Shown here: positions 1-62,880 of the stretch, piece by piece | Numbering within the stretch: position 1 is the first letter of the stretch | How the letters are laid out: each line of letters starts with the position of its first letter | NCBI GenBank assembly: GCA_964567265.1 | Contig: CAZMLK010000001.1 | Span: 15,832 to 79,831, forward strand | DNA: 64,000 nt | Direction of reading: 5' to 3' | DNA from: an uncultured Candidatus Saccharibacteria bacterium | Lineage (GTDB): Bacteria > Patescibacteriota > Minisyncoccia > Phycocordibacterales > UBA12088 | Position numbers and translations under genes: made by a program | Notes under the pieces: generated by a model | What the model saw: only the letters and a program-made list of their open reading frames with translations | Told to the model about the DNA's origin: nothing | Databases searched by the model: none

Positions 1-315
1 TGTTGCCGCGCGAATGGCTCCGTCAGAGAGCTCCATTTTTTCAGGCACAACAATGAGTTTGTCGTCGTTATCATTTGTGCGGTGGATAATTGCAATACAC
101 TGACCTGTGAAGGTTTCCACCGGATCCTGTATTCCTATTACATATGCATCGAGTTCCTCACCATCTGGGGATTTGGTGTCTGTAATGAAGCCATAATTCA
201 ATTCATAGACAAAGTCATGCTTAGGGTGTTTTGAATGGAGGGGACGATCAATTTTGACTGTCACTATTTTATTTAGAAAATCTGTGGCCACCGTGAATTG
301 ATTTTTTTCATCCAT
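1..315 (-). CDS. ppa: Inorganic pyrophosphatase, C-terminally truncated by window edge
   Basis: Minus-strand translation from ATG at 315..313: MDEKNQFTVATDFLNKIVTVKIDRPLHSKHPKHDFVYELNYGFITDTKSPDGEELDAYVIGIQDPVETFTGQCIAIIHRTNDNDDKLIVVPEK. This matches family I PPase motifs (E. coli NYGYI...DGDPVDVLV...KLVAVP). Not in the ORF track because it runs off the window. Confidence 0.7.
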   Translation of the reverse strand, partial: MDEKNQFTVATDFLNKIVTVKIDRPLHSKHPKHDFVYELNYGFITDTKSPDGEELDAYVIGIQDPVETFTGQCIAIIHRTNDNDDKLIVVPEKMELSDGAIRAAT

Positions 316-393
316 ACAAATTCTTTAATTTTTCAGAGTATAACATAAAAAAACCGGGGCTCTTGGTGAGCCCCGGTTGAATGAAGTGTAATG

Positions 394-1206
394 TCAGGAC
401 GGATCGACAATGACGGTGCACAGATAGTCCCGATGGACTAATATCGCATCTTGTCTAGTGAATGAAGGAGCAGTGCATAGTTCTGGCGGCGGATTCGCAC
501 GAATACAGTAGGGATCACTAAACCCAAGAGGTTCATGATCAGTTCTGCCTTCGAAGTTGGCCCATAGATACGCACGGGAAGGGCAACCGCCTCGGCAACT
601 CTCGAGGTGCTCACAGCCTCTGCACTGACTTGTTAATTCCGGGCGGGCACGTCTTCTCCTGAATGCTTCAAATTCCTTGCTAGCTATGATGCCCTCAAGG
701 TCTTCCGTAAGAAGGTCGCCTACCTTAAAGTCGTGGGCATAGACACACGGACTCACTGGAACCCGACCGTCAGGAGTTATCGAATGAATCCGGAATGATT
801 TGGTACCACAAGGGCAACCCCGTGAATTCTGACTAGTGAAGGTCGACGCAAGTGGTTCCCCCATCTCCACGACCTTACAGGACGTGAAGAGGCGATGGCA
901 GGTTCGGTAGAAGGTCTCCACGTCAGGTACCAGTTCCATGTGGTATGGCTCAGTGGGCTTCATAAAGTTGATGCGTACTAGAGCTTTTTGCGCGCGCGAG
1001 GGGCAGCAATGTTGTGAAAGAGGCATTTTTGTCCACTTTCGAAAGTAGGTGATACGGGCTTTTAAATTGGACTGAAGCCGTTTTTTATTCCTGACCGAGA
1101 GGTTCCAAAGTAGCTTTTCTAAGATAAGCCGCTTATTTGCGTTGCTCACTTCCCTAGAAGGAACTATACATAAAGGATTTCGGAGCGGGCCACACACATC
1201 AAGCAT
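394..1206 (-). CDS. SPASM-domain Cys-rich protein (C-terminal half of a radical-SAM/SPASM maturase; no radical-SAM core present)
   Basis: Contains CRGCEHLESCRGGCP, i.e. C-X2-C-X5-C-X-GGC, the SPASM auxiliary Fe-S motif, plus upstream Cys pairs (CHRLFTSC, CPCG...SPC). There is no CxxxCxxC radical-SAM motif, and the ORF plus upstream DNA are too short to hold a radical-SAM core. The true start is uncertain (possibly the internal MKPTEPYHM). Confidence 0.45.
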   Translation of the reverse strand: MLDVCGPLRNPLCIVPSREVSNANKRLILEKLLWNLSVRNKKRLQSNLKARITYFRKWTKMPLSQHCCPSRAQKALVRINFMKPTEPYHMELVPDVETFYRTCHRLFTSCKVVEMGEPLASTFTSQNSRGCPCGTKSFRIHSITPDGRVPVSPCVYAHDFKVGDLLTEDLEGIIASKEFEAFRRRRARPELTSQCRGCEHLESCRGGCPSRAYLWANFEGRTDHEPLGFSDPYCIRANPPPELCTAPSFTRQDAILVHRDYLCTVIVDPS

Positions 1207-1420
1207 ATCTCACACTATATGCTGGGGAATATTGGAACCACGATCTTTATTTCCGGGACCGCCTGCTTCGTCACCCGGACGAGGTTCAGGAGTATGCATT
1301 ATTGAAAATGGATATTGCTCGCGAGTATCCAGAGAGATCCACTGGGGTGTCCTGAAGGAAAGACTGAGTACATCAATGCAGAGGCCGCAAAGGCTAAAGA
1401 ATTGAGTTCGGAGCAGAGGG
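1158..1420 (+). pseudogene. GrpB-family protein remnant (C-terminal fragment, frameshifted)
   Basis: Plus-strand frame reads YWNHDLYFRDRLLRHPDEVQEYALLKMDIAREYPE, then after a frameshift DPLGCPEGKTEYINAEAAKAKEL. This resembles the GrpB C-terminus consensus (FRDYLRAHPE..A.EY..LK..LA...DR.AYTEAKT.FI). An in-frame stop lies just upstream and no N-terminal part is present. Confidence 0.35.
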
Positions 1421-1481
1421 TGCGTGCATCACGTGTATGGATTTTGCTCACAACTATAGAGTAGTATACTGAAGTCAAACT

Positions 1482-3881
1482 ATGCGAGGAATGAAATTTC
1501 ATATTGCGAAATTTGTGACTTCTCTAACAGTGCTCTTATTGTTTGTAATATCATTTCCACTTTCGGCCCATGCGACAGTGCCGGCGGCGGCACAACTTTT
1601 GGACTCGACTGAAAACCCCTACACCTCAACCGGTGTTCGTGTGACGGTCTCGAATGCAGGCAGTATGTACGGTCTCGCAAACGACCGCACTAGCGCGTAC
1701 ATCATCAATTCGAGCGGAAACATTTATACGGTTCCATTGGCGGCACTCGCTGCTTTGTCGGGAGGTTCGTCGACGAGCACGAACGGTACGGCGCATACGG
1801 TTGGCTGGAGTTCCGGCGGCGCACCAGCATGGCCCAATTCATCACAAGGGAGCATCGTCTACAGTCATGGGTGTGTTTTTATGACGAGTGCAGAAGGAAG
1901 TGGCACCACTCCTGGCACTATAGAACTATATTGCATCGACACGTCGGACTATTCGGTCACCCAGATTACGGTGCCCTCGGATAATCCACTTCCGAACGGG
2001 AATTATTTTGCCTATAGCAATCTTGTTGATTTTCCAGATGGGCGAATAGGTAAGGTCTCGAAGTATGTCGATATGGGCGGCGGCGTGTATCGCTCTACCT
2101 TGCGACTTTACACTGTCTCAGGAACGGGCAAGAATGCCACCCTCACGTGGTCCGAGGACATACAGATGAGTGACACAAACAACTGGGCTGTTGATGAGCA
2201 CGGTCTTGGGACCGACGGTACCTATCTGTACCGTATCCAATGGAGGGACGTAAATCCAAATACAAAAGTATGGCAATTGGCGAGCGGGGCAACGTCGACG
2301 GTCGTATACTCGGGAAATTTCACACGAGCGTTCGATAACATGCACTTCCTTTCTCATAACCATACCGGCAACTACTATCTGATAGGCTACTATTCCCAGA
2401 ACCAATTTTTTATTACAACCTCTGCGGATCCGGGTCCAGGACCCGGCAACCCCCTCACGCCTACATTCGCGACGCCGACGTACTCCTCGACCAGTTTTAC
2501 CGTGCAGGTAAGCAACTACGACAGCTCGTTTACCTGGGTGGTTTCCAGTACTGCGGGGAGTGTGAGCATCAACGGAACCGGCCTCATCTCCGTGACAGGT
2601 CTCTCTGGACAAGGTGCATCTGCAACGATAACTGCTTCGACGACAAAGAGCGGTATACCGGACGGATCCGCTAGTCTTACTGGTACGATACCGGACACGA
2701 CGGCACCCGTACTTTCTTCGATTGCGTCTTCGACAGCAGCAACGACCGCCAGTGTGACGTGGACGACGAACGAAGCCGCTTCAACAAAAATGGTATATTC
2801 CACGGACACTTCATATGCGTCATCTACATCCGAGGCAGATACCGGTACGCGCGTCATGAGCCACAGCAAATCACTCAGCGGCCTAGTTTCTTGCACAACG
2901 TATACGTTTAAAGTTGTTTCTTCAGATGCCTCAGGGAACTATGCGACCTCTTCCGCAAGCACATTCACCACAACAGGCTGCCCTGGCGGCGCGATACCTT
3001 CTTCTTCAACTTCTACCGCAATCACTGTGAGTTCTGCGGCCACGAGTACGGTGACGGATTCGGGTCGCACACTCACCGTATCGACGCCCGTAAACTTTAC
3101 GGCTACGTCCTCCTCGGTCATTATTCAAATCAAAGGACTCTCCTCAAACACCGTGCTTGGCTCAATAGGGAAGCCGGGCAGTCTTTCCAGCGCCGCTAGT
3201 CTGGTATTCGACGTCACCGCACTCATCGACAACGCCACCGTGCTCGACTCGTTTGATTCTCCGGTCACTATTTCCTATACCTATACCGACACTGACATAT
3301 CAGGGCTCAATGAAAGTTCGCTGACGATGTATCACTACCACAGCGGCTCATGGCTTGCGCTCAGTGACTGCTCGGTCAATACCAGCACAAACACAATAAC
3401 CTGTTCGACGTCGAGCTTCTCAACATTTGCGATTTTCGGTACCGCGCAGTCGTCATCATCTAATTCCTCCGTGGGAGGAGCCTCGCTGCCGTGGTGTTCG
3501 AGTCCGTCTGCACCGGGGTGGAATGTAAGCATGTCGGGAGGAGGGTGTCGTAAAGTTGTTCTGGAGACATCAACTGCTGTACCGGAAAATATGGCCGTCT
3601 GCCCGAGATACACATTTGTTCGCTCGTTGCGTCGAGGTATGGTCGGTGAAGATGTCCGAAACTTACAGAAATTGATGAACTGCCTCGGCTTTTCACTCGG
3701 CACAAGCGGTCCGGGCTCACCAGGTAATGAGACTACCATTTTTGTTGGTCGAACCGACGACGCTGTAAAGAAGTTTCAAAATGCATATTCCGCTGAGGTG
3801 CTGGCTCCGATAGGAATCAAAAAACCTACGGGAATTTTTGGTGAACGTTCCCAGAAGAAGGTGAAAGAACTCCTCAATTAG
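1482..3881 (+). CDS. Large secreted cell-surface protein with C-terminal peptidoglycan-binding (PG_binding_1-like) domain
   Basis: N-terminal signal peptide (MRGMKFHIAKFVTSLTVLLLFVISFPLSAHA). Ser/Thr-rich Ig/Fn3-like repeats follow. The C-terminus RSLRRGMVGEDVRNLQKLMNCLGFSLG...DDAVKKFQNAYS is typical of PG-binding domain 1. Confidence 0.7.
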   Translation: MRGMKFHIAKFVTSLTVLLLFVISFPLSAHATVPAAAQLLDSTENPYTSTGVRVTVSNAGSMYGLANDRTSAYIINSSGNIYTVPLAALAALSGGSSTSTNGTAHTVGWSSGGAPAWPNSSQGSIVYSHGCVFMTSAEGSGTTPGTIELYCIDTSDYSVTQITVPSDNPLPNGNYFAYSNLVDFPDGRIGKVSKYVDMGGGVYRSTLRLYTVSGTGKNATLTWSEDIQMSDTNNWAVDEHGLGTDGTYLYRIQWRDVNPNTKVWQLASGATSTVVYSGNFTRAFDNMHFLSHNHTGNYYLIGYYSQNQFFITTSADPGPGPGNPLTPTFATPTYSSTSFTVQVSNYDSSFTWVVSSTAGSVSINGTGLISVTGLSGQGASATITASTTKSGIPDGSASLTGTIPDTTAPVLSSIASSTAATTASVTWTTNEAASTKMVYSTDTSYASSTSEADTGTRVMSHSKSLSGLVSCTTYTFKVVSSDASGNYATSSASTFTTTGCPGGAIPSSSTSTAITVSSAATSTVTDSGRTLTVSTPVNFTATSSSVIIQIKGLSSNTVLGSIGKPGSLSSAASLVFDVTALIDNATVLDSFDSPVTISYTYTDTDISGLNESSLTMYHYHSGSWLALSDCSVNTSTNTITCSTSSFSTFAIFGTAQSSSSNSSVGGASLPWCSSPSAPGWNVSMSGGGCRKVVLETSTAVPENMAVCPRYTFVRSLRRGMVGEDVRNLQKLMNCLGFSLGTSGPGSPGNETTIFVGRTDDAVKKFQNAYSAEVLAPIGIKKPTGIFGERSQKKVKELLN

Positions 3882-11338: not shown

Positions 11339-12736
11339 TCAGTGCGAGGTGACGAGGGCGTTCATGCGACTCCTTAGCTTTGCAAGTTCACGTTGCTGTG
11401 TCGTGGTGAGTGTTCCGAGAAGTAGGTTGGGACCATCGCTGGTGTTCCGTCCTTTGATTCTGAAGAATTCTTCCGCGCCGGTGTATCTCTTGATGAGCTT
11501 GTATCCCGAGGGGTCTGTGATTTCTCGCGTGTACCCGGAGTTTGGATTTCCAGCCGGAAAGTATTCCGAGTACACGTTTTGGTGCACTTCTCCGGTAGTC
11601 GAGTTGTCCAGTACAGGAACTAAGCTCACCCCATCAAGCGTTACTCCTGGCGGAACCACGCTCGCTGGGCTGACGCCTGCGAGTCCCAGGAACGTGGGGT
11701 AGAGATCGACACCGCTGACGATCCCTCGATAGATGCGTCCAGGAGTGGCGACGCCTGCGCCCGCAATGAATGCAGGTATTTCGATACCGGGGCCATACGG
11801 TGAGCTCTTTCCGTACGCACCATACGGAGATGCCATAACCTGTTTCGACGTGCCATTGTCTCCGATGAAGATGACGGTCGTTGTCGAGAGATCGACCCCT
11901 TTGAGAAGCCGTCCGATTTCGGTATCCATGGCTTCAATCATGCGCTCGAAGATCGCGCGATTACCCGTACCCGACTTGGGTCGATTGAGCAGGCTTGTCG
12001 GCGGCTCCTGATATGGTGAATGTGGCGCATTGAAGGCGAGCCAGAGGAAGTACGGCCGCCCCTGTGTTTTCGCCGACTTGATGACGCCGAGCGCGGCATC
12101 AACCTGGGTTGTGGTGGCATAGCCGGGCGATTTCACAGTCGTGACAGCCGGGTTATTCTCCGATGCCTTCACGTAGTTGTAGACATCATAGTAGTTTCCA
12201 AGAGCGCCTCCTGACACAGTCGTGGTGTAGAGGGGAAAGCCCCAGCGTTCAGAGAGATCGTACGGCTTTTTCTCGTACCCGATGTGCGATTTGCCGACGA
12301 GCGCAACGACATACGGAACTGGCAGATGAGCATTTGCCGCCGCGAACGCTTTCGCGATCGTAAAGGCGTCTGCGCTCAGCGGCGGCGTCGGCCGCGTGCT
12401 GTCTATCCATGCGCCGATATGCTGGTTGTCACGAAACGCGTACCTGCCGGTCATGATGCTCGCACGCGTAGGCGAACATTCCTGGTATCCCCACATTCCT
12501 GTGAAGATGACACCTTGGTTTGCTAATGCCGATAGGATCGGCGTTGGCGCGGCAGCAGGGACTGTATTCGTCCGTCCGTCCGTCGTGGGTACCCATGGGG
12601 CCATATCGACGCCCATATCATCGGCGATGATGAAGAGGATGTTCCGCGGGGCTGCCCCTGCGGCTTGTATGCCTGTCAAAGACCAGAGCGCGGCGACAAA
12701 CATCGCCGCCGCTGCTTTCAGTAAATGCCGTAGCAT
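11339..12736 (-). CDS. Sulfatase (Cys-type, canonical C-S-P-T-R formylglycine motif)
   Basis: Signal peptide. IADDMG, CSPTRASIMTGRY and NAPHSPY motifs are typical of arylsulfatase family members. Confidence 0.85.
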   Translation of the reverse strand: MLRHLLKAAAAMFVAALWSLTGIQAAGAAPRNILFIIADDMGVDMAPWVPTTDGRTNTVPAAAPTPILSALANQGVIFTGMWGYQECSPTRASIMTGRYAFRDNQHIGAWIDSTRPTPPLSADAFTIAKAFAAANAHLPVPYVVALVGKSHIGYEKKPYDLSERWGFPLYTTTVSGGALGNYYDVYNYVKASENNPAVTTVKSPGYATTTQVDAALGVIKSAKTQGRPYFLWLAFNAPHSPYQEPPTSLLNRPKSGTGNRAIFERMIEAMDTEIGRLLKGVDLSTTTVIFIGDNGTSKQVMASPYGAYGKSSPYGPGIEIPAFIAGAGVATPGRIYRGIVSGVDLYPTFLGLAGVSPASVVPPGVTLDGVSLVPVLDNSTTGEVHQNVYSEYFPAGNPNSGYTREITDPSGYKLIKRYTGAEEFFRIKGRNTSDGPNLLLGTLTTTQQRELAKLRSRMNALVTSH

Positions 12737-12929
12737 TCAATGCTCCTTGCGTTCGCGGTTCCCACTATTGGGGACCGTCCGGTGGGGACTATAACACGTT
12801 TTTTGATTTTTGTCATTATTCGTACAAGCGATGTATTCGCTCTTCGGAATCCATCCACAGCATTCTCAGATTCCGCGCGAAGACCTGGTGGTATACTGAA
12901 CACGTAAAATTATAAAAATAAATTTTCAC

Positions 12930-12995
12930 ATGGCCAAAGGAAACGACGCTCGGAAGAAGGAGGCGAAGAAGCCGAAGAAGGGGGGAAAGAAATAA
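12930..12995 (+). CDS. Tiny lysine-rich ORF (21 aa: MAKGNDARKKEAKKPKKGGKK)
   Basis: ATG preceded by an AT-rich promoter-like stretch (tataaaaataaattttcac). It is followed immediately by a strong hairpin terminator. A similar tiny K-rich ORF lies at 44940. Confidence 0.25.
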   Translation: MAKGNDARKKEAKKPKKGGKK

Positions 12996-13007
12996 TCGTC
13001 GTCGTGT

Positions 13008-13052
13008 GCAAACTCCCCCGAAAGCTCCCAAGGAGCTTTCGGGGGAGTTTGC
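13008..13052 (+). terminator. Hairpin terminator after tiny K-rich ORF
   Basis: gcaaactcccccgaaagctccc-aagg-agctttcgggggagtttgc, a perfect ~20-bp stem. Confidence 0.55.
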
Positions 13053-13066
13053 TATACTACAAGGGT

Positions 13067-13477
13067 ATGCTCACCTGGACACAGTACGCACTCGTGTATC
13101 TTATAAGCGTCCCGATATTCTTCGCGATCGACATGGTCTGGCTCGTCGTTGTCGCGAAAACCTTCTATCGGTCGCATCTCGGAAGCCTCCTTTCTGATAC
13201 GGTGATCTGGCCAGTGGCCATCAGCTTCTACCTTCTCTTCCTCCTCGGCCTCCTCATCTTTGCCATCGCTCCCGCGATCGAAGCCAGGGACGTATATCGC
13301 GCGCTTCTCATGGGTGCGCTCTTCGGTTTCTTCACCTACGCGACCTACGACCTTACGAATTGGTCCACGCTTGCAAACTGGCCGTGGCAAGTCGCGCTCG
13401 TCGATATGGCGTGGGGAACGGTGCTCTCCGCATCGGTCGCGTTTGGTACCTACCGGCTCGCGATGCTTTTCATGTAG
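13067..13477 (+). CDS. DUF2177-like small membrane protein
   Basis: Four hydrophobic helices. Start at MLTWTQYAL. Confidence 0.5.
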   Translation: MLTWTQYALVYLISVPIFFAIDMVWLVVVAKTFYRSHLGSLLSDTVIWPVAISFYLLFLLGLLIFAIAPAIEARDVYRALLMGALFGFFTYATYDLTNWSTLANWPWQVALVDMAWGTVLSASVAFGTYRLAMLFM

Positions 13478-13481
13478 CATT

Positions 13482-14252
13482 ATGTCCATACTTGAGTCCG
13501 CGTTCCTGGTCCTGTTCCTCTACATGAGTGCGCTCTGCATCGTCGCGCTCGCGCGGAAGAATAACGGCATCGCGGATATCGGCTACGGCGTCGCGTTCAT
13601 CGTGCTCATCGGCTCGGCACTCCTCCTCGGGGGAGCGCCGAACGGATACGCGCTCGCGCTCGCGATCCTTCCGCTTATCTGGGGCACGCGCCTCGCGCTC
13701 CGCATCTTCCTCAAGAACCACGGCAAGCCGGAGGATTTTCGATATGCCGCGTGGCGCAAGGCGTGGGGCAAGAATTTCGCGGCGCGGAGCTTCTTCCAGA
13801 TCTATATGCTCCAGGGCGCGGTCGTCGGCGTGGTCGCGCTTCCCGTGCTGCTGTCGCTGGTGTATGGGGCCTTAAACCCGAATCCGCTCCTCTTCATCCT
13901 CGGCCTTATCCTCTGGATCGTCGGATTCTTTTTCGAGACCATGGCGGATTTCCAGCTTGACCGCTTCATCTTCAATCGCGAACATGCGGGACATGTCATG
14001 ACCGAGGGATTGTGGCGCTACTCGCGGCATCCCAACTATTTCGGCGAGAGCCTGATGTGGTTTGCGATTGCCGTTGCCGCCTCCGGACTCTCCGCGCTCC
14101 CATTCCACGGCTTCATAAGCCCGTTCCTCATCACGTTCCTCCTCCTCAAGGTCTCCGGCGTCCCCATGCTCGAGAAACGTTTCGCCGGCAATCCGGAATG
14201 GGAAGCCTACAAGGCGCGGACGTCCGTATTCATACCTCTTCCGCCGAAATAG
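13482..14252 (+). CDS. DUF1295 / steroid 5-alpha-reductase-like membrane protein
   Basis: LWRYSRHPNYFGE motif near the C-terminus and multiple TM helices. Start at MSILESAF (ATG 13482), in frame with track ORF 13260. Confidence 0.65.
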   Translation: MSILESAFLVLFLYMSALCIVALARKNNGIADIGYGVAFIVLIGSALLLGGAPNGYALALAILPLIWGTRLALRIFLKNHGKPEDFRYAAWRKAWGKNFAARSFFQIYMLQGAVVGVVALPVLLSLVYGALNPNPLLFILGLILWIVGFFFETMADFQLDRFIFNREHAGHVMTEGLWRYSRHPNYFGESLMWFAIAVAASGLSALPFHGFISPFLITFLLLKVSGVPMLEKRFAGNPEWEAYKARTSVFIPLPPK

Positions 14253-14343
14253 CCGCGCGCATTCCGGAACAAAATTGGACCATTGACCAGTTGGCCGGCG
14301 GGCTCCTTTTGCCTATAGTGTACAGACTTATCCATAGTCTCAA

Positions 14344-15051
14344 GTGCACGTAATGAAAAAAATACTCATCGGTCTCGCTGTCGTCCTGGTCTTGCTTGGT
14401 GCCGCATTCGTATTTGCCGGCCCGAAGCAGGCTGCTGTTGAAGTCTCGACCACGCCGACGACCACCCCGGAGGCAGCTCCGACCGAAGTCGCCGTTACCG
14501 AAGGAACGTATCGCGTTGATCCTGCCGAAAGCACGTTCGAATGGGCAGCAAAGAAGCCGCTCATCGAGGGATACATTGATAGCGGCAGCATCGGCATCAC
14601 CGATGGTACCGTGAATGTCGGCACCTCGACTGCCGATGGCGTCTTCTCGCTCGACATGAATACCCTCAAGGTCGGTCTCACTGCAAAGAAGCCGGGACAG
14701 GAAGAGGCGCTTGAAAAGCACCTGAAGAGCGCCGATTTCTTTGATGTCGCGAAGTACCCGACCGCATCCTTCACGATCAAGAGCGTCACGCCCGCAACCA
14801 CGACGACCGCGGCGCTCACGTACGTGATCACGGGTGACCTCATGATGAAAGGCAAGAAGAACTCGATCTCGTTCCCGGCAAAAATTTATCTCGCTGGCGA
14901 CGTTCTCCATGCGGAAGCGGCGACCGAGATCGATCGCACCAAGTGGGGCATCACCTACGGATCCGGGAACTTCTTCAAGTCGCTCGGCGATAACCTGATC
15001 GACGACATGGTCGCGATCTCGTTCTCCGTGGTGGCGCCGAAGGTCCAGTAA
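14344..15051 (+). CDS. YceI-family periplasmic protein
   Basis: Signal/TM anchor. YRVDPAESTFEWAAKK...GDLMMKGKKNSISFPAKI pattern matches YceI-like lipid-binding proteins. Confidence 0.7.
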   Translation: MHVMKKILIGLAVVLVLLGAAFVFAGPKQAAVEVSTTPTTTPEAAPTEVAVTEGTYRVDPAESTFEWAAKKPLIEGYIDSGSIGITDGTVNVGTSTADGVFSLDMNTLKVGLTAKKPGQEEALEKHLKSADFFDVAKYPTASFTIKSVTPATTTTAALTYVITGDLMMKGKKNSISFPAKIYLAGDVLHAEAATEIDRTKWGITYGSGNFFKSLGDNLIDDMVAISFSVVAPKVQ

Positions 15052-15071
15052 TCACGCCGAGAGGATTTTAG

Positions 15072-15110
15072 GAAAAGCGCGCGGCCCCGTATTGGGGCCG
15101 CGCGCTTTTC
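15072..15110. terminator. Bidirectional rho-independent terminator between convergent genes
   Basis: aaaagcgcgcggcccc-gtat-tggggccgcgcgctttt, a GC stem flanked by A and T tracts. Confidence 0.7.
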
Positions 15111-15125
15111 CACATGCGGAAACCA

Positions 15126-15815
15126 TCACCTCGGATGCCCGAAGTCCTCGGTCGCATAGAGCGTGTCACGCTCCTCGGCAATCCCGATGCCTTCCTCTGA
15201 AAAGAGAGTGCTCAGGATATTTTCGCGGTGGCCGGGACTCGCCATCCACCCGGCGACGATATTCGCGGCGATCTTTTCCGGTGACAATTTAAAAGAGGTG
15301 TGGATGAGATAGATGTTCTCGCCAACCGCCCCCCATGCATAGCCGCCCTTGGTGAGGCGGCAGCCTGAGTTACAGGCATCCTTGTCGGAATGCGAGAAAT
15401 AGCCCTTCTGGAGCATGTCCTCGCTGTGCGCTCTCGCGATGCCCGCGAGCTTGGCATTGTACGCGAGTACCGGCAGATTATTTTTAACGCGCTCGGCATT
15501 GATGCCTGTATGGACTGCGGCCTCGATTGCGAGGATGGTGTCAGAAGGAAGGGCGGTATCGATACTCGAGGTCGCCCTCAGCGAAACATTACCGAGCCCG
15601 CTCCGTGTGGTCGATGCGGCGAATGCGTTCACTTGCTTCTTCGGAGCTGGCGGAACGGCTGCCGGTTTCGCCTTTGCAACAACTGAACTTGTCGCGGCCG
15701 CGCTCGCAGTCGAGGTGGCGATCTCGGCGTCATGCTTCACGAACCCTGCAAAGGCAAAGAGTCCAATCAACGAAGCCAGAAATAGTTTGAGCGGCAAGGG
15801 GAGTGCGAACAGCAT
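15126..15815 (-). CDS. CAP/SCP/PR-1 domain secreted protein
   Basis: N-terminal hydrophobic anchor. HTGINAERVKNNLPVLAYN...AHSEDM...GYFSHSD...GENIY...GWMASPGHRENIL matches CAP-domain motifs. Confidence 0.7.
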   Translation of the reverse strand: MLFALPLPLKLFLASLIGLFAFAGFVKHDAEIATSTASAAATSSVVAKAKPAAVPPAPKKQVNAFAASTTRSGLGNVSLRATSSIDTALPSDTILAIEAAVHTGINAERVKNNLPVLAYNAKLAGIARAHSEDMLQKGYFSHSDKDACNSGCRLTKGGYAWGAVGENIYLIHTSFKLSPEKIAANIVAGWMASPGHRENILSTLFSEEGIGIAEERDTLYATEDFGHPR

Positions 15816-41263: not shown

Positions 41264-41361
41264 TTTCCTCTTGCGGGGATAGCAGACACGGAAAATCGGC
41301 CGCTCGGCCGATTTTCCGTGTCTTTTCGTGACAATCTTGCACGTGTGGTATTATTCTCGGA

Positions 41362-44641: not shown

Positions 44642-44659
44642 TCCCCACTCCGGTGCGGA

Positions 44660-44702
44660 AAAAATAAATGAGCAGGCGCACGCCTGCTCATTTATTTTTT
44701 CC
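44660..44702 (+). terminator. Rho-independent terminator
   Basis: aaataaatgagcaggcg-cac-gcctgctcatttattttttcc. Confidence 0.7.
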
Positions 44703-44984: not shown

Positions 44985-45004
44985 TCTTCTTCTCGAAGGA
45001 TCTA

Positions 45005-45052
45005 AAAGAAATCGCCCGAACGTGTCTCACGCTCAGGCGATTTCTTTTTTTG
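45005..45052. terminator. Hairpin with T-tract, shared by tiny ORF (+) and AI-2E gene (-)
   Basis: agaaatcgcc-cgaacgtgtctcacgctca-ggcgatttct followed by ttttttt. Confidence 0.55.
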
Positions 45053-49598: not shown

Positions 49599-49671
49599 GC
49601 GGATTCCTCCAAATGCTGCCGTCAGCGCAGCTGCGCGACTGGTCGCTTTCTATAATATATACCTATCAGTG

Positions 49672-49941
49672 TCAATGATTAGGTCTGGTTCGTCCCCCGT
49701 CGCTTGGATCCAGGAATCCGGGGGGAATCAGTCGCTCCAAGAGATACAGGATGCCGAAAATGACCGTGATATCATCCAGTTCTCCCAAAAAGGGGATGAA
49801 GTCAGGGATGAGATCGAAAGGAAAGAAAAGATAGAGGATGCCGACGATAGGCAGCACCTTCACGAATAGTGGCGCCCTCGGATCTCGAATGATTCGAGGA
49901 TAGAGCCGGATGAGGGTGAAGGCCCGTCTGAGGAATTTCAT
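49672..49941 (-). CDS. DUF1232 (YkvA-like) small membrane protein
   Basis: DLIPDFIPFLGELDDITVIFGILYL matches the DUF1232 core. Confidence 0.6.
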   Translation of the reverse strand: MKFLRRAFTLIRLYPRIIRDPRAPLFVKVLPIVGILYLFFPFDLIPDFIPFLGELDDITVIFGILYLLERLIPPGFLDPSDGGRTRPNH

Positions 49942-50034
49942 CCGGCTACTATGCCAAATGCTAGATGCGGTTTTGATGAAAGAGAAAAGGCCTCACGCAT
50001 GCGCGAGGCCTTGCGACCGACCAGCCTGTGTCGA

Positions 50035-50346
50035 TCAGGATTGAGTTTGGGACTTGACGCAAGCAGCGACAAGCTTGGCCACGTCGTCCATTATTTTAGA
50101 TCGGAACAGGGGATCATTGAGGAGGGCTTCGGGTAGAATCATCACGTTTTGTTCTGATGCAAAAGTTCTAACCTGCCCAGGGTCATTTGCCCATACAGAA
50201 CCAACTGTAAGCGCATCGTGAACCTCCCCGAGGGTGGTGATTGTCATGCAACTGGGGGAACTATCTACCGTCTGCGCTAGGCCGGTGCCAATTTGAGTGG
50301 CGGTAAGGGCGACGGCCCCAGCAAAACGCCGCATCCAAGGCTTCAT
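50035..50346 (-). CDS. Small secreted Cys-containing protein, paralog A (103 aa)
   Basis: MKPWMRRFAGAVALTATQIGTGLAQTVDSSPSCMTITT...LVAACVKSQTQS. Signal peptide and two conserved Cys. GGAG ribosome-binding site 8 nt upstream. The track ORF 50035..50673 reads through the upstream paralog. Confidence 0.55.
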   Translation of the reverse strand: MKPWMRRFAGAVALTATQIGTGLAQTVDSSPSCMTITTLGEVHDALTVGSVWANDPGQVRTFASEQNVMILPEALLNDPLFRSKIMDDVAKLVAACVKSQTQS

Positions 50347-50384
50347 CTTTACTTCTCCAAAGTATTTCAAGACGATATGCCAGG

Positions 50385-50420
50385 AAATACAATACATATT
50401 ATATCTGTATATGTCAATAA
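50385..50420 (-). promoter_or_regulatory. Sigma-70-type promoter for paralog A
   Basis: Minus strand reads TTGACA (50417..50412), a 17-nt spacer, then TATTGT (50394..50389) preceded by TG (extended -10). Confidence 0.5.
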
Positions 50421-50506
50421 TTCGGTAGGTAGGGGGAAATAGGAAAGGCCTCGCGTATGCGCGAGGCCTTGTGACCGACAGGGTGATCGGTCTCAGTGAC
50501 AAGTGG

Positions 50507-50812
50507 TCAGGGTTGGGACTGAATCTGGCCGCAGAGCGCGACAAGCTTGAGGGCTTCGGCTCTGAATTCGGTCCTGGCCTTCTCATCTCCGAGGATGCTC
50601 TCGCTGAGGACAAGGACATCGCTACGGGACAGGTAGCTAAGGGTGCGGTCGAGACTATTCGTACCCCCAACATTGACTATGGCATCAATATCCGATGGCG
50701 TTACCATCTTCACGCAGCTAGGGGCTGAGGCGTCGGCCTGCATTACCATCCCACCAGCAAAACCGGCCGCAGTTGCCCCTACCAGGGAAAGTACTGCCAT
50801 CCAAGGCTTCAT
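50507..50812 (-). CDS. Small secreted Cys-containing protein, paralog B (102 aa)
   Basis: MKPWMAVLSLVGATAAGFAGGMVMQADASAPSCVKMVT...LVALCGQIQSQP. Same architecture as paralog A. Confidence 0.55.
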   Translation of the reverse strand: MKPWMAVLSLVGATAAGFAGGMVMQADASAPSCVKMVTPSDIDAIVNVGGTNSLDRTLSYLSRSDVLVLSESILGDEKARTEFRAEALKLVALCGQIQSQP

Positions 50813-50850
50813 CTTCACTTCTCCGAAGTGTTTCAGGGCGATATGCCAGG

Positions 50851-50886
50851 AAACATAATACATATTATATATTTATATGTCAAGTG
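50851..50886 (-). promoter_or_regulatory. Sigma-70-type promoter for paralog B
   Basis: Minus strand reads TTGACA (50883..50878), a 17-nt spacer, then TATTAT (50860..50855). GGAG ribosome-binding site upstream of the ATG. Confidence 0.5.
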
Positions 50887-51182
50887 ATTGTGATGGGGAA
50901 TTGAGCTCAGTATTAGCCCTTGCAACGCCCATGCACCTCGGGGTTTTGTGAAGGCCCCTTCATTAAGGGGATTGGCCACCAGTCACTAAGGGGGGATTGT
51001 CCCACGGTCACTAATTCACTTCGCTCATAAGTGCCGCTGGATGGATGAGTCACGGTGAAAATGATTTGGGGAATCATTTTCACCTAAGCCGCAAGCGGCG
51101 ATTTCGCCTCGGTGAATGACGTCAAATCCTGTTTTGTGAATCAGGGGATGTAAAGAAAGTAATATCAATGACGGATTTTTGA

Positions 51183-51232
51183 AAAAAACTCAAAAAGGGA
51201 AGACCGACCGTTGATATAATCTCGGGTCGGTC
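51183..51232 (-). terminator. Rho-independent terminator (minus strand)
   Basis: Minus strand reads gaccgacc-cgagattatatcaac-ggtcggtc followed by ttcccttttt gagttttttt. Confidence 0.6.
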
Positions 51233-51251
51233 TGAAGGTTCTGCTGCCGCG

Positions 51252-51602
51252 CTAGTGGTGCAAGTCGTAATTGCCGATGTCCGTCCACGAAGCCTCCGTA
51301 GGTAGACCTCGTTTGCGTGCCTCGCGCTTCCGGTCCAGCTCGTTGTCGTAATTGCCGATGTCCGTCCACGAAGCCTCCGTAGGTAGACCTCGTTTGCGTG
51401 CCTCGCGCTTCCGGTCCAGCTCGTTGTCGTAATTGGCGATGTCCGTCCATCGGGCCGTTTCCGGCAAGTTGCGAGCCGCAGCGCTGCAGGTTCGACTGGA
51501 CTCGTCGTCAGTGATTCCGGAGCATTCGACCTGGAAATAGCTGGTCGCACCCACGACCACGAGGATGAAGCTCGTGAGTAGTCCGATGAGAATTCGGGGC
51601 AT
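51252..51602 (-). CDS. Small secreted repeat protein (116 aa) containing an in-frame 27-aa tandem repeat
   Basis: N-terminal hydrophobic segment MPRILIGLLTSFILVVVGATSY. NYDNELDRKREARKRGLPTEASWTDIG is repeated twice, plus a degenerate third copy. Confidence 0.5.
   Translation of the reverse strand: MPRILIGLLTSFILVVVGATSYFQVECSGITDDESSRTCSAAARNLPETARWTDIANYDNELDRKREARKRGLPTEASWTDIGNYDNELDRKREARKRGLPTEASWTDIGNYDLHH
51264..51452. repeat. Perfect 81-bp tandem duplication (2 identical copies + diverged third copy)
   Basis: gtcgtaattgccgatgtccgtccacgaagcctccgtaggtagacctcgtttgcgtgcctcgcgcttccggtccagctcgtt occurs at 51264 and again at 51345 with no mismatches. A third copy starts at 51426 and diverges after ~25 bp. 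Confidence 0.85.
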
Positions 51603-51889
51603 GTCAGTTACTCAATACTGTGGACACTGTGATGATTGTAGCATGAATAAATACTTTGTCAATACCCACAATCTCCAGAGGAGATTGTCTTCCCGCCATA
51701 GATTCGCTTTGCTCGTACGCGCCTTGTGACCCCGACTCGAACCGAGGTTCTTCCTTAGAGGACGGTACACCTTGCAGACATATTTAGTTAAGGGATCAGT
51801 CACGAGTCACTAAGGATTGTTCGTCGCAGGCTCCTCAAACCCTAAGTGCTCGCGACCCCGTCTCAAAACTAAAAATGTGTGGACAGCAT

Positions 51890-51935
51890 ACGAAAAAGTT
51901 GAAACCGCCTCGAAGCATGGATGCTTGAGGCGGTT
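51890..51935 (-). terminator. Rho-independent terminator (minus strand)
   Basis: aaccgcctcgaagcatggatgcttgaggcggtt hairpin, with a T-tract on the minus strand (ttcaactttttcg). Confidence 0.6.
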
Positions 51936-51950
51936 ACGTTGCTGAGAGGG

Positions 51951-52175
51951 TCACCTATCTGTGGGGTAGCCATCCATGAAGCGAGGCAGTTCAGATGATC
52001 CCGCTGGAGCTATGTAGTTGTAGCACCAGCACTGGATATCCCCTCCATCATCTGGCTGTATGTGGAGCTCATCGCGATGCTTATCCCAGGAGGTGACGAT
52101 GCCGGTTGTGGAGATGAGTTGCACACGTTTCCCCACGCATTCTTTGCGAGGCGGAACACATTTTGTTGAACACAT
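51951..52175 (-). CDS. Small Cys-rich protein (74 aa)
   Basis: MCSTKCVPPRKECVGKRVQ...DIQCWCYNY has six Cys. Start at internal ATG 52175, preceded by a TTGACA-N17-TAAGGT promoter (52244..52216). Confidence 0.4.
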   Translation of the reverse strand: MCSTKCVPPRKECVGKRVQLISTTGIVTSWDKHRDELHIQPDDGGDIQCWCYNYIAPAGSSELPRFMDGYPTDR

Positions 52176-52288
52176 GATTACACCTGTAACCTGTAGTTGA
52201 TACGAAACTAAGTGGACCTTAGCATTTTTTATATGTATTGTCAATAGCACGAAACCGCCCGAACGGCGGTTTCGTCATTGTAAATGTG

Positions 52289-52678
52289 TGGAGATGGGGG
52301 GATCGAACCCCCGTCCGAACTGGGGCGGGATCGCGATCTACGAAGCGTAGTCACCTTTGTTCCTTTAGGCCGTGCTGGTCGAAGGTGACCAAATGCAGCA
52401 CGTGCCGAGCTTCCTTAATTTAGGTTCCGTGCCAAAGCGCTCATGGAACCGATTTCAGTTTTTATGACACCGTCATCACCCTACTGAACGACGGATGATG
52501 GGATGGCTTATGCAGTTGCGTAAGCGAACGCGAAGTCATTCATCTGGAATGGAGACAAAACTGACTTTGCGCGTGCGAGAGTGTTCTTTGCACTTGTTGT
52601 TTCCAGATTTTTAGGAAGGTCTGGACTTCCGCTTCGCCCGACAATCCGTAAGACCAATCCGTCGAAACTGACATCCCC
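52289..52678 (-). ncRNA. ssrA: tmRNA (ssrA), ~390 nt, directly downstream of smpB
   Basis: 5' end GGGGATGTCAGTTTCGACGGATTGG (compare E. coli GGGGCUGAUUCUGGAUUCGACGGGAUUUG). 3' end TTCGGACGGGGGTTCGATCCCCCCATCTCCA, a tRNA-like T-arm plus an acceptor strand complementary to the 5' GGGGATG. An internal ORF ends ...NDFAFAYATA-TAA, a plausible degradation tag. Confidence 0.8.
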
Positions 52679-52742
52679 GCTTCCTGCATTCAGGAGAATG
52701 CAGGAAGCGGGAACCACCTACGGTTTCGATGACGTCGTACGG

Positions 52743-53189
52743 CTAGCGCGCTTTCATCTCTCGGTCCAGATCGCGTTTCGTATCCCTGGTCTTCAGAGTC
52801 TCGCGCTTGTCGAATTTCTTCTTGCCGCGCACGATGGCAATCCGGGCCTTGATGTAGCGGCCCTTACTATACATTGAAATTGGGACGATTGTCAACCCTT
52901 TGGCGCCCTCTGCACCCAACACCTTTTCGAGCTCTTTCTTCGAGAGAAGGAGTCGCCGGGTGCGGTCAGGTTCATAGCTTGTCGGGGCATTCTTCGGCTG
53001 GTGGGCAGGAATCGAGGCGCCAATCAGATAGGCCTCGTTCCCGCGGATGATGACCCGGGCGCCCTCGAGCGTCCCATGTCCGCCGCGGACCGACTTCACC
53101 TCGAAGCCGAACAGCTCGATACCCGCCTCGAATTCCTCAAGGATTTCATAGTTGAAATGGGCTTTTCGGTTCTGGACGAAGGTCGTCAT
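52743..53189 (-). CDS. smpB: SsrA-binding protein SmpB
   Basis: NRKAHFNYEILEEFEAGIELFGFEVKS...GKKKFDKRETLKTRDTKR, a full-length match to the SmpB family. Confidence 0.9.
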   Translation of the reverse strand: MTTFVQNRKAHFNYEILEEFEAGIELFGFEVKSVRGGHGTLEGARVIIRGNEAYLIGASIPAHQPKNAPTSYEPDRTRRLLLSKKELEKVLGAEGAKGLTIVPISMYSKGRYIKARIAIVRGKKKFDKRETLKTRDTKRDLDREMKAR

Positions 53190-62483: not shown

Positions 62484-62750
62484 TCAGTCTACAAGGACGT
62501 CAAGTCCAAAAACGTCACCTGCGTACCGAGTAAGGCTACTGACCAGTTTGTTAGGGCAGGTGACCGCAATAGTATAAACGCCGTCATCATTGACCGGCAC
62601 ACCGCCTACGTTCTGGACGAACGCTTCGACACGCCCTGACCTTGGGTACAAGCATCGCATATGCTCTGCACATACGAATAGGTCCCGATGAGTGAGATTT
62701 GATGCAGTCGGGATTCGGCATCGAATCGTAAGTGTTGTGGGCTCAGGCAT
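62484..62750 (-). CDS. Small Cys-containing hypothetical protein (88 aa)
   Basis: Start at MPEPTTLTIRCRIP (ATG 62750). A strong promoter TTGACA (62822..62817)-N17-TAAATT (62799..62794) and a GGGAG ribosome-binding site lie upstream. The track ORF is over-extended. Confidence 0.45.
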   Translation of the reverse strand: MPEPTTLTIRCRIPTASNLTHRDLFVCAEHMRCLYPRSGRVEAFVQNVGGVPVNDDGVYTIAVTCPNKLVSSLTRYAGDVFGLDVLVD

Positions 62751-62793
62751 TTGAAACTCCCATTTGCTTGGAACCAGAAGAAAATCTCCAGAG

Positions 62794-62822
62794 AATTTAA
62801 CACGATAATTGTATATTGTCAA
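62794..62822 (-). promoter_or_regulatory. Sigma-70-type promoter
   Basis: Minus strand reads TTGACAatatacaattatcgtgtTAAATT. Confidence 0.5.
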
Positions 62823-62880
62823 TAACACCAAACCCGGCACGCTTCGCGTGCCGGGTTTGGTGTCGGTGTGGAAAGCGGAG

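Follow-up and report, generated by a model that had tools for sequence, protein, structure and literature searches.

We describe a variable patch of about 2.3 kb at the 3' end of the transfer-messenger RNA (tmRNA) gene, ssrA, in a stretch of 64,000 nucleotides (nt) of contig CAZMLK010000001.1, which is called the window below. The patch occupies positions 49950-52288 and separates ssrA from a conserved block of genes that opens with a DUF1232 gene. The acceptor 3' strand of the tmRNA, CATCTCC, ends at 52290 by sequence reading, the discriminator A is 52289 and CCA is not encoded; the discriminator position bears out the 3' end at 52289 given by a first-pass annotation of this DNA. That annotation had also seen only small genes downstream of ssrA, all on the minus strand, and we confirmed four open reading frames (ORFs), here called cys74, rep116, parA and parB. 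Reading away from ssrA, the genes and their signals are as follows.

52286..52678 (52288-52678 by ARAGORN), minus strand: tmRNA gene ssrA, recognized by ARAGORN, by Rfam (RF00023, 114 bits) and in the sequence
52248..52276, minus strand: tmRNA terminator hairpin, part of the cys74 cassette, read from the sequence; no match to positions 264-365 of the related contig L081 (see below)
52216..52244, minus strand: cys74 promoter, TTGACA-17-TAAGGT, 9 of 12 matches, from sequence and hexamer position
51951..52175, minus strand: cys74, 74-aa ORF with five Cys; GC content at third codon positions (GC3) 0.55; absent from L081
51891..51935, minus strand: cys74 terminator, hairpin and T-tract, read from the sequence
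51635..51662, minus strand: rep116 promoter, TTGACA-16-TACAAT with TG extension, from the promoter scan
51252..51602, minus strand: rep116, 116-aa orphan with a hydrophobic N-terminal segment and 2.3 copies of a 27-aa repeat; absent from L081
51182..51233, minus strand: rep116 terminator, hairpin and T-tract, read from the sequence
50855..50883, minus strand: parA promoter, TTGACA-17-TATTAT, from the promoter scan
50507..50812, minus strand: parA, 101 aa, with a signal-peptide-like N-terminus and two conserved Cys; orthologue of the sole par gene of L081
50445..50470, minus strand: parA terminator, computed hairpin
50389..50417, minus strand: parB promoter, TTGACA-17-TATTGT; promoter and 5' untranslated region about 90% identical to those of parA
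50035..50346, minus strand: parB, 103-aa paralogue of parA, within an extra unit of ~466 bp that is absent from L081
49987..50012, minus strand: parB terminator, 89% identical to the parA terminator; the variable patch ends here

Textbook TTGACA promoters had been said to be concentrated here, and the counts agree. A perfect TTGACA with at least 10 of 12 matches occurs at only five sites in the 64 kb, three of them within the patch and one being the ssrA promoter. Six of the window's 11 minus-strand TTGACA hexamers fall in 49670-52890, one each upstream of ssrA, cys74, rep116, parA, parB and the LamG gene of the conserved block. The remaining perfect TTGACA-17 promoter of the window (62794-62822) lies in a small-ORF region of low GC3 (0.46; ORF 62484-62840, minus strand) with no Pfam match. 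GGAG ribosome-binding sites, attributed earlier to all of these genes, stand only before parA and parB; that of cys74 is weak and rep116 has none. A Shine-Dalgarno-like 4-mer of any kind precedes just 9 of the 52 ORFs of the window. The strong terminators reported earlier are present as hairpins, those after parA and parB computed and those after the tmRNA, cys74 and rep116 read by eye.

The two tandem genes for proteins of ~100 aa are paralogues, as proposed: parA and parB share 31% identity (E 2e-14), and both products have MKPWM, a hydrophobic N-terminus and two conserved Cys. In rep116, the perfect 81-bp tandem duplication was recovered at 51264-51344 and 51345-51425, with a partial third copy (whole repeat 51264-51449). 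Its copy number is that of the window sequence alone, because three independent Logan assemblies of this organism, L082, L113 and L114, all break inside the repeat, at window positions 51406-51421. The product of cys74 has the predicted 74 residues, with five Cys instead of the six that had been counted.

The cys74 cassette lies between two copies of an 11-nt direct repeat, TCCACACATTT.

52282..52292, minus strand: left copy of TCCACACATTT, formed by the last 4 nt of the tmRNA and 7 nt of trailer
51873..51883, minus strand: right copy of TCCACACATTT, at the end of the 409-bp cys74 cassette

This sequence occurs exactly twice in the 64-kb window, against 0.03 expected, and the 409-bp unit between its copies consists of a new tmRNA terminator, a promoter, cys74 and a terminator. 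The candidate attachment (att) sites suggested earlier near 49958 and 50888 proved to be chance matches of no significance. With blastn-short, no repeat of at least 14 nt of the last 120 nt of the tmRNA was found in the window; the matches that it did return, one of 13 nt on the opposite strand (858-870) and one of 10 nt within cys74, were discarded as chance.

The first-pass annotation regarded the patch as AT-rich and as fitting a horizontally acquired or decayed mobile cassette. Its GC content of 0.513 is indeed low and ranks at the 2.4th percentile of a window that averages 0.561 (sd 0.020; 56% GC). However, the four ORFs together have a GC content of 0.559 (genome 0.56) and occupy 51% of the region, while the 1152 nt of intergenic DNA have 0.467, so the low value is a coding-density effect of the 49% of non-coding DNA. 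Codon usage gave a divided picture: GC3 is typical in rep116 (0.73) and parA (0.63), but cys74 (0.55) and parB (0.53) rank between the 1st and 5th percentiles of 100-codon chunks. A single, compositionally foreign low-GC island, acquired horizontally, since decayed and carrying bacteriocin or effector genes, could account for the low regional GC, the low-tail GC3 of two genes and the signal-peptide-like N-termini and conserved Cys of parA and parB. We nevertheless regard it as highly improbable: it is largely refuted by the native coding GC, the region is pieced together from parts that differ in age, no homologue or family match backs a bacteriocin or effector identity, and the only structure model, an AlphaFold model of parA, was unusable (predicted local distance difference test score, pLDDT, 49). 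The lowest GC in the window is found elsewhere, at 1-3500 (0.48-0.51, below that of the ssrA patch), where genes encode a SPASM-domain protein (394-1206, minus strand; GC3 0.50) and a 799-aa protein with a peptidoglycan-binding domain (1482-3881; GC3 0.54).

That the 3' flank of ssrA is a variable insertion zone is supported by comparison with L081, a Logan contig from a ~85% identical relative that bears the par-family protein P0003. L081 aligns with the window over the last 263 nt of the tmRNA (96.6% identity) and over 7.4 kb of flank (85%; DUF1232, LamG, GSDH/PKD, AI-2E transporter and beyond). Between these two blocks it has only ~320 bp of non-coding DNA and one par gene; cys74, rep116 and parB are missing. 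The patch is thus a presence/absence polymorphism with conserved flanks (85-97% identical), and conserved synteny of the small genes beside ssrA, which would have spoken against a mobile origin, was not what this comparison of close relatives returned. The tmRNA terminator carried by the cys74 cassette is unrelated to that of L081.

The par gene of L081 is orthologous to parA, with flanks 91-96% identical, and codons 37-66 share only 18% of amino acids and 31% of nucleotides. This centre of parA (50620-50710) could not be aligned with L081:740-827, both ends being 82-89% identical, and the L081 version has two additional Cys. The pattern looks like replacement of a segment rather than point divergence. 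The ratio of non-synonymous to synonymous substitution rates (dN/dS) between window and L081 was 0.017-0.095 in the flank genes, 0.36 in DUF1232 and 0.53 in parA. In three ~99% identical strains (L113-L115) the cys74 cassette is always present and has zero substitutions, while smpB, the gene upstream of ssrA, has 3-5 synonymous changes. On the evidence of these strains, the cassette has become fixed in the species, and it is probably young, since a young insertion fits the lack of substitutions next to a gene that has acquired some.

The reiterated non-coding motifs that had been noticed (GTCACTAAG) are present, and we could place them as the 3' strand of a ~150-nt module found in many distant Paceibacterota loci. 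On the sense strand of the RNA gene, the 3' end of a tRNA or tmRNA (X) is followed by a terminator hairpin, an inverted copy of X (X'), GAAAGNCGGAG, a variable hairpin, GAGN'CGGGGTCGNGAGYACTTAG, a variable loop, CTTAGTRACTYGTGAC and a direct copy of X that begins in the T-loop. X and X' always match the RNA gene of their own locus, trailer bases included, and therefore copy the gene rather than the mature RNA. Priming by a mature tRNA, as at retroviral primer-binding sites, was rejected as an origin of the inverted arm because the arm copies trailer bases and not CCA (L081).

RNAalifold folded ten copies of the module into three helices, P1 (X' with X), P2 and P3. A covariance model gave 53 hits in 1.42 Mb, and nearly all of them begin 40-50 nt 3' of a tmRNA, tRNA-Ser or tRNA-Ile gene, on the same strand; tandem second and third copies stand behind the same RNA genes. 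Occupancy is patchy, with modules at 7 of 59 tRNA-Ile, 7 of 26 tRNA-Ser and about 14 of 65 tmRNA genes. Over the 53 hits, 92.6% of cells were paired, compared with 72.7% in shuffles and 32-46% with slid partners, and 21 of the 24 pairs had double-sided changes. The middle pair of P2 occurs as all four Watson-Crick types (GC 16, CG 14, AU 11, UA 3). These covariation figures are somewhat inflated because the alignment was fitted to the model; in an unfitted MAFFT alignment 9 of the 24 pairs already covary. A near-invariant G.U in P3 identifies the sense strand as the folded one. A metagenome scan with a tmRNA T-arm/acceptor pattern returned 17 loci, which included no close relative and are informative solely on the module.

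Rfam 15 recognized only tmRNA and tRNA in the window and seven module-bearing loci, and nothing for the module itself; lenient scans of the module gave only chance matches of hairpin type, and its core had no match in viral contigs. A hammerhead or other ribozyme, a tRNA-like cloverleaf and group II intron domains were ruled out by eye on the junction sequences, together with the lack of an Rfam match. The module may serve as a recombination site or as a guide-like RNA, or it may be a non-coding RNA, either selfish or of the host. In any of these cases, the covarying structure represents a widespread, previously undescribed element, not in Rfam, of the 3' flanks of ssrA, tRNA-Ser and tRNA-Ile. 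A second core variant (GGTGCCCAGAC ... AGTCGCGGGC, then the direct arm) lies just 3' of the tmRNA in L008, L046, L067 and L094; the covariance model detects it weakly, so true occupancy of tRNA and tmRNA flanks is probably above our count. One locus departs from the usual 3' placement: at L060:1700-2110 (minus strand) a module sits inside a duplicated 5' fragment of tRNA-Ser that is split in the D-loop and stands upstream of the intact gene, whose 3' end is entered from the opposite side by a recombinase ORF.

Two copies of the module lie in the patch.

51782..51872, minus strand: module copy 1, with P2 and P3 intact (GGGGTCGCGAGCACTTAG ... CTTAGTGACTCGTGAC), X' missing and X truncated to TGATCCC
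50965..51110 (about 51110-51030), minus strand: module copy 2, degraded; orthologous to the module of L081, whose P3 loop (ccgcttgcgg) it shares exactly

Copy 1 is the one significant covariance hit of the window (51782-51915, 55 bits, E 3e-12 / 7.5e-15). It lies 373 nt from the tmRNA, as opposed to the usual 40-50 nt in relatives, and its TGATCCC is this genome's own T-loop allele. Copy 2 is followed by two 25-nt tandem scars (TTAGTGAC...CAATCCCC) with the T-loop allele of L081. TTAGTGAC occurs three times in the window, always within the patch, against 0.71 expected, and its copies are parts of the conserved structured module. The short T-loop-start remnants at the module junctions (TGATCCC, CAATCCCC) are junction scars that repeat the start of the segment from T-loop to 3' end of the tmRNA; of the two alleles, CAATCCCC is found in the distal scars and the genome's own GATCCC in the proximal remnant. 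The P3 loop of copy 1 differs, whereas copy 2 has both the P3 loop of L081 and its downstream sequence. The order along the strand is therefore tmRNA, cys74 cassette, young module, rep116 cassette, old module with scars, parA, parB and conserved flank. With the young parts near ssrA and the old ones farther off, this is the layering expected from repeated insertion at the end of an RNA gene.

In other genomes, modules flank unrelated cargo. L086 has a gene for a 280-aa bestrophin-like protein between two near-identical module copies of ~115 nt, and L067 has three small ORFs between the tmRNA and a distal, truncated copy. A strong TTGACA promoter follows directly after the distal copy in L086, L067 and the window. 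The 80 ORFs that we scanned downstream of modules were mostly housekeeping genes, and a large serine recombinase was also among them. Homologues of the latter were found by tblastn in 13 loci. Recombinase genes run convergently into the 3' end of the tmRNA gene, abutting or overlapping it, in L062, L014, L025, L029, L018 and L051, and into that of tRNA-Ser in L060, L004, L029 and L079; the L060 gene encodes Resolvase, Recombinase and Zn_ribbon_recom domains. In three loci, inverted repeats of 120-139 nt (99-100% identity) enclose the recombinase gene; they start 4-8 nt before the end of the tmRNA.

L018:11184-12878: recombinase locus with inverted repeats
L029:10934-12636 and 12620-15363: recombinase locus with inverted repeats
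L062:10868-12612: recombinase locus with inverted repeats

These bracketed genes could be an invertible segment, an element with long terminal inverted repeats, or an insertion into a palindrome. L029 also has a second inverted pair, of 165 nt, whose arms enclose 2.4 kb of cargo, an XRE-like gene among it.

Taken together, these results lead us to favour, with moderate confidence, the interpretation that the 2.3 kb between ssrA and the DUF1232-LamG-GSDH flank are an additive recombination hot spot at the tmRNA 3' end which at present lacks a recombinase. The patch would then consist of four self-sufficient cassettes, in each of which a small ORF stands between a strong sigma-70-type promoter and a terminator, interleaved with module copies and scars. 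The ancestor may have resembled L081, with tmRNA, terminator, module, one par gene and flank. A younger module copy and the rep116 cassette would have been inserted beside ssrA; the 409-bp cys74 cassette would then have entered the tmRNA terminus, bringing a new tmRNA terminator and leaving the 11-nt direct repeat; and tandem duplication of the par expression unit would have produced parB. Newer material would thus lie nearest ssrA and older scars would have been displaced downstream. The best candidate for the enzyme would be a trans-acting recombinase, for instance one of the large serine type found in relatives at the same tmRNA/tRNA-Ser slot, or else the insertions may have arisen by short-homology recombination at repeated module or terminus sequences. 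As far as such a reconstruction from sequence can go, the arrangement indicates several successive small insertions and a local tandem duplication, not a single decayed element. Of the decayed mobile cassette proposed in the first-pass annotation, the variable zone, the repeat around cys74 and the scars stand, and the single element and its foreign composition do not.

Several observations weigh against a hot spot of this kind. Only one close relative was available, so that insertion in this lineage and deletion in L081 are indistinguishable, and no excised or circular form was observed. The 11-nt repeat includes just 4 nt of tmRNA and could have been produced by illegitimate recombination, and the native coding composition carries no trace of foreign origin. 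No homologue of the large serine recombinases was detected in the 64-kb window (E<=0.1), and no fragment of one in the patch, the cys74 cassette included. No recombinase-like gene lies within 10 kb, tyrosine recombinases not having been searched exhaustively over all 64 kb. The earlier remark that the cassette has lost its integrase agrees with these searches, while relatives carry a recombinase at the same 3' ends. Recombinase and module are tied to each other by circumstantial evidence, namely a shared slot at shared target genes, and their co-occurrence at loci is about at chance level. In the one recombinase-bearing element examined, that of L029, the covariance model found only a weak distal unit, and the 15-nt GGCGGGGTCGAGGGC motif seen there three times by eye is weak evidence for module-like sequence. 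The one relative of the recombinase in viral contigs, a 56% homologue (L101), has no tRNA, tmRNA or module nearby and is uninformative.

Purely local evolution is the main competitor, and we consider it a possible but less probable explanation. The genes would be native, vertically inherited and fast-evolving genes for secreted proteins, in a zone rich in promoters and poor in genes, rearranged by duplication, slippage, deletion and illegitimate recombination, with neither a mobile element nor a site-specific recombinase involved. Native coding GC, the shortness of the repeat around cys74 (11 nt), the stability of the cassettes in three ~99% identical strains and the lack of a recombinase in the window are all consistent with this, and duplication has clearly been active here (81-bp rep116 repeat, 466-bp par unit). 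On the other hand, local events do not readily explain why breakpoints fall at the tmRNA terminus and at module borders, why the same module brackets unrelated cargo in distant genomes and is patchy at the same RNA genes, why relatives' recombinase genes occupy the same slot, or why the cys74 cassette carries a tmRNA terminator of its own that has no relation to the L081 one.

None of the four proteins matched Pfam, NCBIfam or PHROGs, and none has a homologue outside the lineage; the earlier label of bacteriocin or effector has nothing in its favour apart from the signal-peptide-like N-termini. Among 5.8 billion clusters the par family counts three members, namely parA, parB and P0003 (62-63% identical to parA), and no credible distant relatives among 1.84 billion representatives. 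The search with rep116 returned only rep116 itself, called in the NCBI record as P0004. For cys74, nothing in the 5.8 billion clusters shares even three 5-residue words, cys74 itself included, so no gene caller has recorded it. A tblastn search of six local proteins against 80 SmpB loci gave no match, which has little weight, as those genomes are only 58-66% identical in SmpB. On these searches the four proteins are lineage-restricted orphans, and parA and parB look secreted and fast-evolving. Orphan, rapidly diversifying small proteins under the strongest promoters of the window are a plausible source of host-interaction factors in episymbionts.

The coding status of cys74 is uncertain, because it has no match anywhere and its GC is flat across codon positions (0.53/0.49/0.55). 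These two properties and the weak ribosome-binding site would suit a chance ORF in transcribed non-coding DNA, the promoter then driving a small RNA, and the same might apply to rep116, which has no ribosome-binding site. We judge this unlikely for the pair. rep116 bears the genome's coding signature (GC3 0.73), was called by NCBI, and has a repeat whose 81 bp make 27 codons and keep the frame. The cys74 ORF takes up the space from its promoter to its terminator and is unbroken in three strains, a comparison with no power given zero substitutions, and the region has no Rfam match.

A more far-reaching possibility is that the module is a functional recombination site or guide-like RNA of a cassette-capture system specific to Patescibacteria, with the patch as its decayed array. 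In such a system, the P2/P3 scaffold and the variable X'/X arms, which match the local tRNA or tmRNA end, would direct a trans-acting recombinase, perhaps of the large serine type seen in the same slot, and small promoter-bearing cassettes would be stacked at ssrA, tRNA-Ser and tRNA-Ile. We put this forward as speculation and think it rather doubtful. The routes by which Patescibacteria, with their very small genomes, acquire accessory genes are poorly known; the present locus and about 100 related loci point to the 3' flanks of ssrA, tRNA-Ser and tRNA-Ile as hot spots shared in the group. Should the module prove to be a recombination site or guide, it would represent a new mechanism of cassette acquisition in a major uncultured lineage.

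The proteins closest to SmpB belong to metagenome-assembled genomes of Patescibacteria (Paceibacterota/Parcubacteria) with identities of only 58-66%, so the organism has no near relative among GTDB species representatives. The tmRNA tag peptide, AKNTLARAKSVLSPFQMNDFAFAYATA (window 52508-52590), is unusually long at 27 residues, and similarly long '...SPYF/SPFF...FAFA' tags occur in relatives among the loci compared. The neighbouring features are:

52866..52895, minus strand: ssrA promoter, TTGACA-18-TATAGT, inside the 3' part of smpB
53189-52743, minus strand: smpB, upstream of the tmRNA gene
49941-49672: DUF1232 gene, the first of the conserved flank, followed by LamG and GSDH genes

From its position within smpB, the TTGACA-18-TATAGT promoter appears well placed for driving ssrA. 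An AI-2E transporter, SmpB and an aldolase are further neighbours. In the gaps between genes of the conserved flank, blastn also showed self-complementary stretches of 40-46 nt (palindromic hairpins) as self-matches on the reverse strand, at 44657-44702, 45004-45048 and 41284-41323.

Three known systems invite comparison. The classical picture of genomic islands at tmRNA and tRNA 3' ends, with tandem arrays of elements and partial-gene att scars, is reportedly that of Williams in 2002-2003. Tycheposon-shaped additive islands have been described in Prochlorococcus at seven tRNA genes including tmRNA (bioRxiv 10.1101/2020.12.28.424599). The patch resembles such islands in beginning immediately 3' of the RNA gene (at 52289) in a streamlined genome, in newer insertions apparently displacing older ones from the RNA gene, in short remnants of the RNA gene's 3' segment that may mark old junctions, and in cargo mostly of unknown function. 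Recombinase-less remnants also persist among those islands, and some tycheposon-type elements, a minority, rely on large serine recombinases. Unlike them, the units of the window are tiny (0.4-0.9 kb), being single small genes each with its own promoter and terminator, and the patch has no integrase, recombinase or replication module of its own and no atypical composition. The folded three-helix module, with inverted and direct copies of the RNA-gene end, is not known from those islands.

Staphylococcal cassette chromosome (SCC) and pseudo-SCC elements of staphylococci form composite islands behind the rlmH (orfX) gene, at its 3' end, and are moved by the large serine recombinases CcrAB or CcrC. 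Common to SCC and our loci are a recombinase of the large serine family at the 3' end of a conserved housekeeping gene and arrays with recombinase-less cassettes, presumed to be mobilisable in trans, between repeated integration-site sequences. In contrast to SCC, the target here is an RNA gene, the window has no element of the kind seen at tmRNA and tRNA-Ser in relatives, the relatives' genes lie within perfect inverted repeats of 120-139 nt, and any action of the recombinases on these sites is putative.

Integrons are arrays of cassettes whose attC sites fold as single strands. In the window, an IntI-type tyrosine recombinase was not detected, within the limits of the tyrosine recombinase search given above, and Rfam returned no integron-related family. 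Each cassette of the window has its own TTGACA promoter, the module reproduces the tRNA or tmRNA end beside which it lies, no attC R/L box consensus was seen (no explicit box search was made), and the array is short and partly the product of tandem duplication. What the two have in common is the plan: small single-gene cassettes, separated by an element conserved in structure (compensatory changes, variable loops), in an array anchored at one fixed site. If the module does operate in cassette capture, structure-dependent targeting of RNA-gene ends would be new, with a logic comparable to that of integron attC sites or IS110 bridge RNAs.

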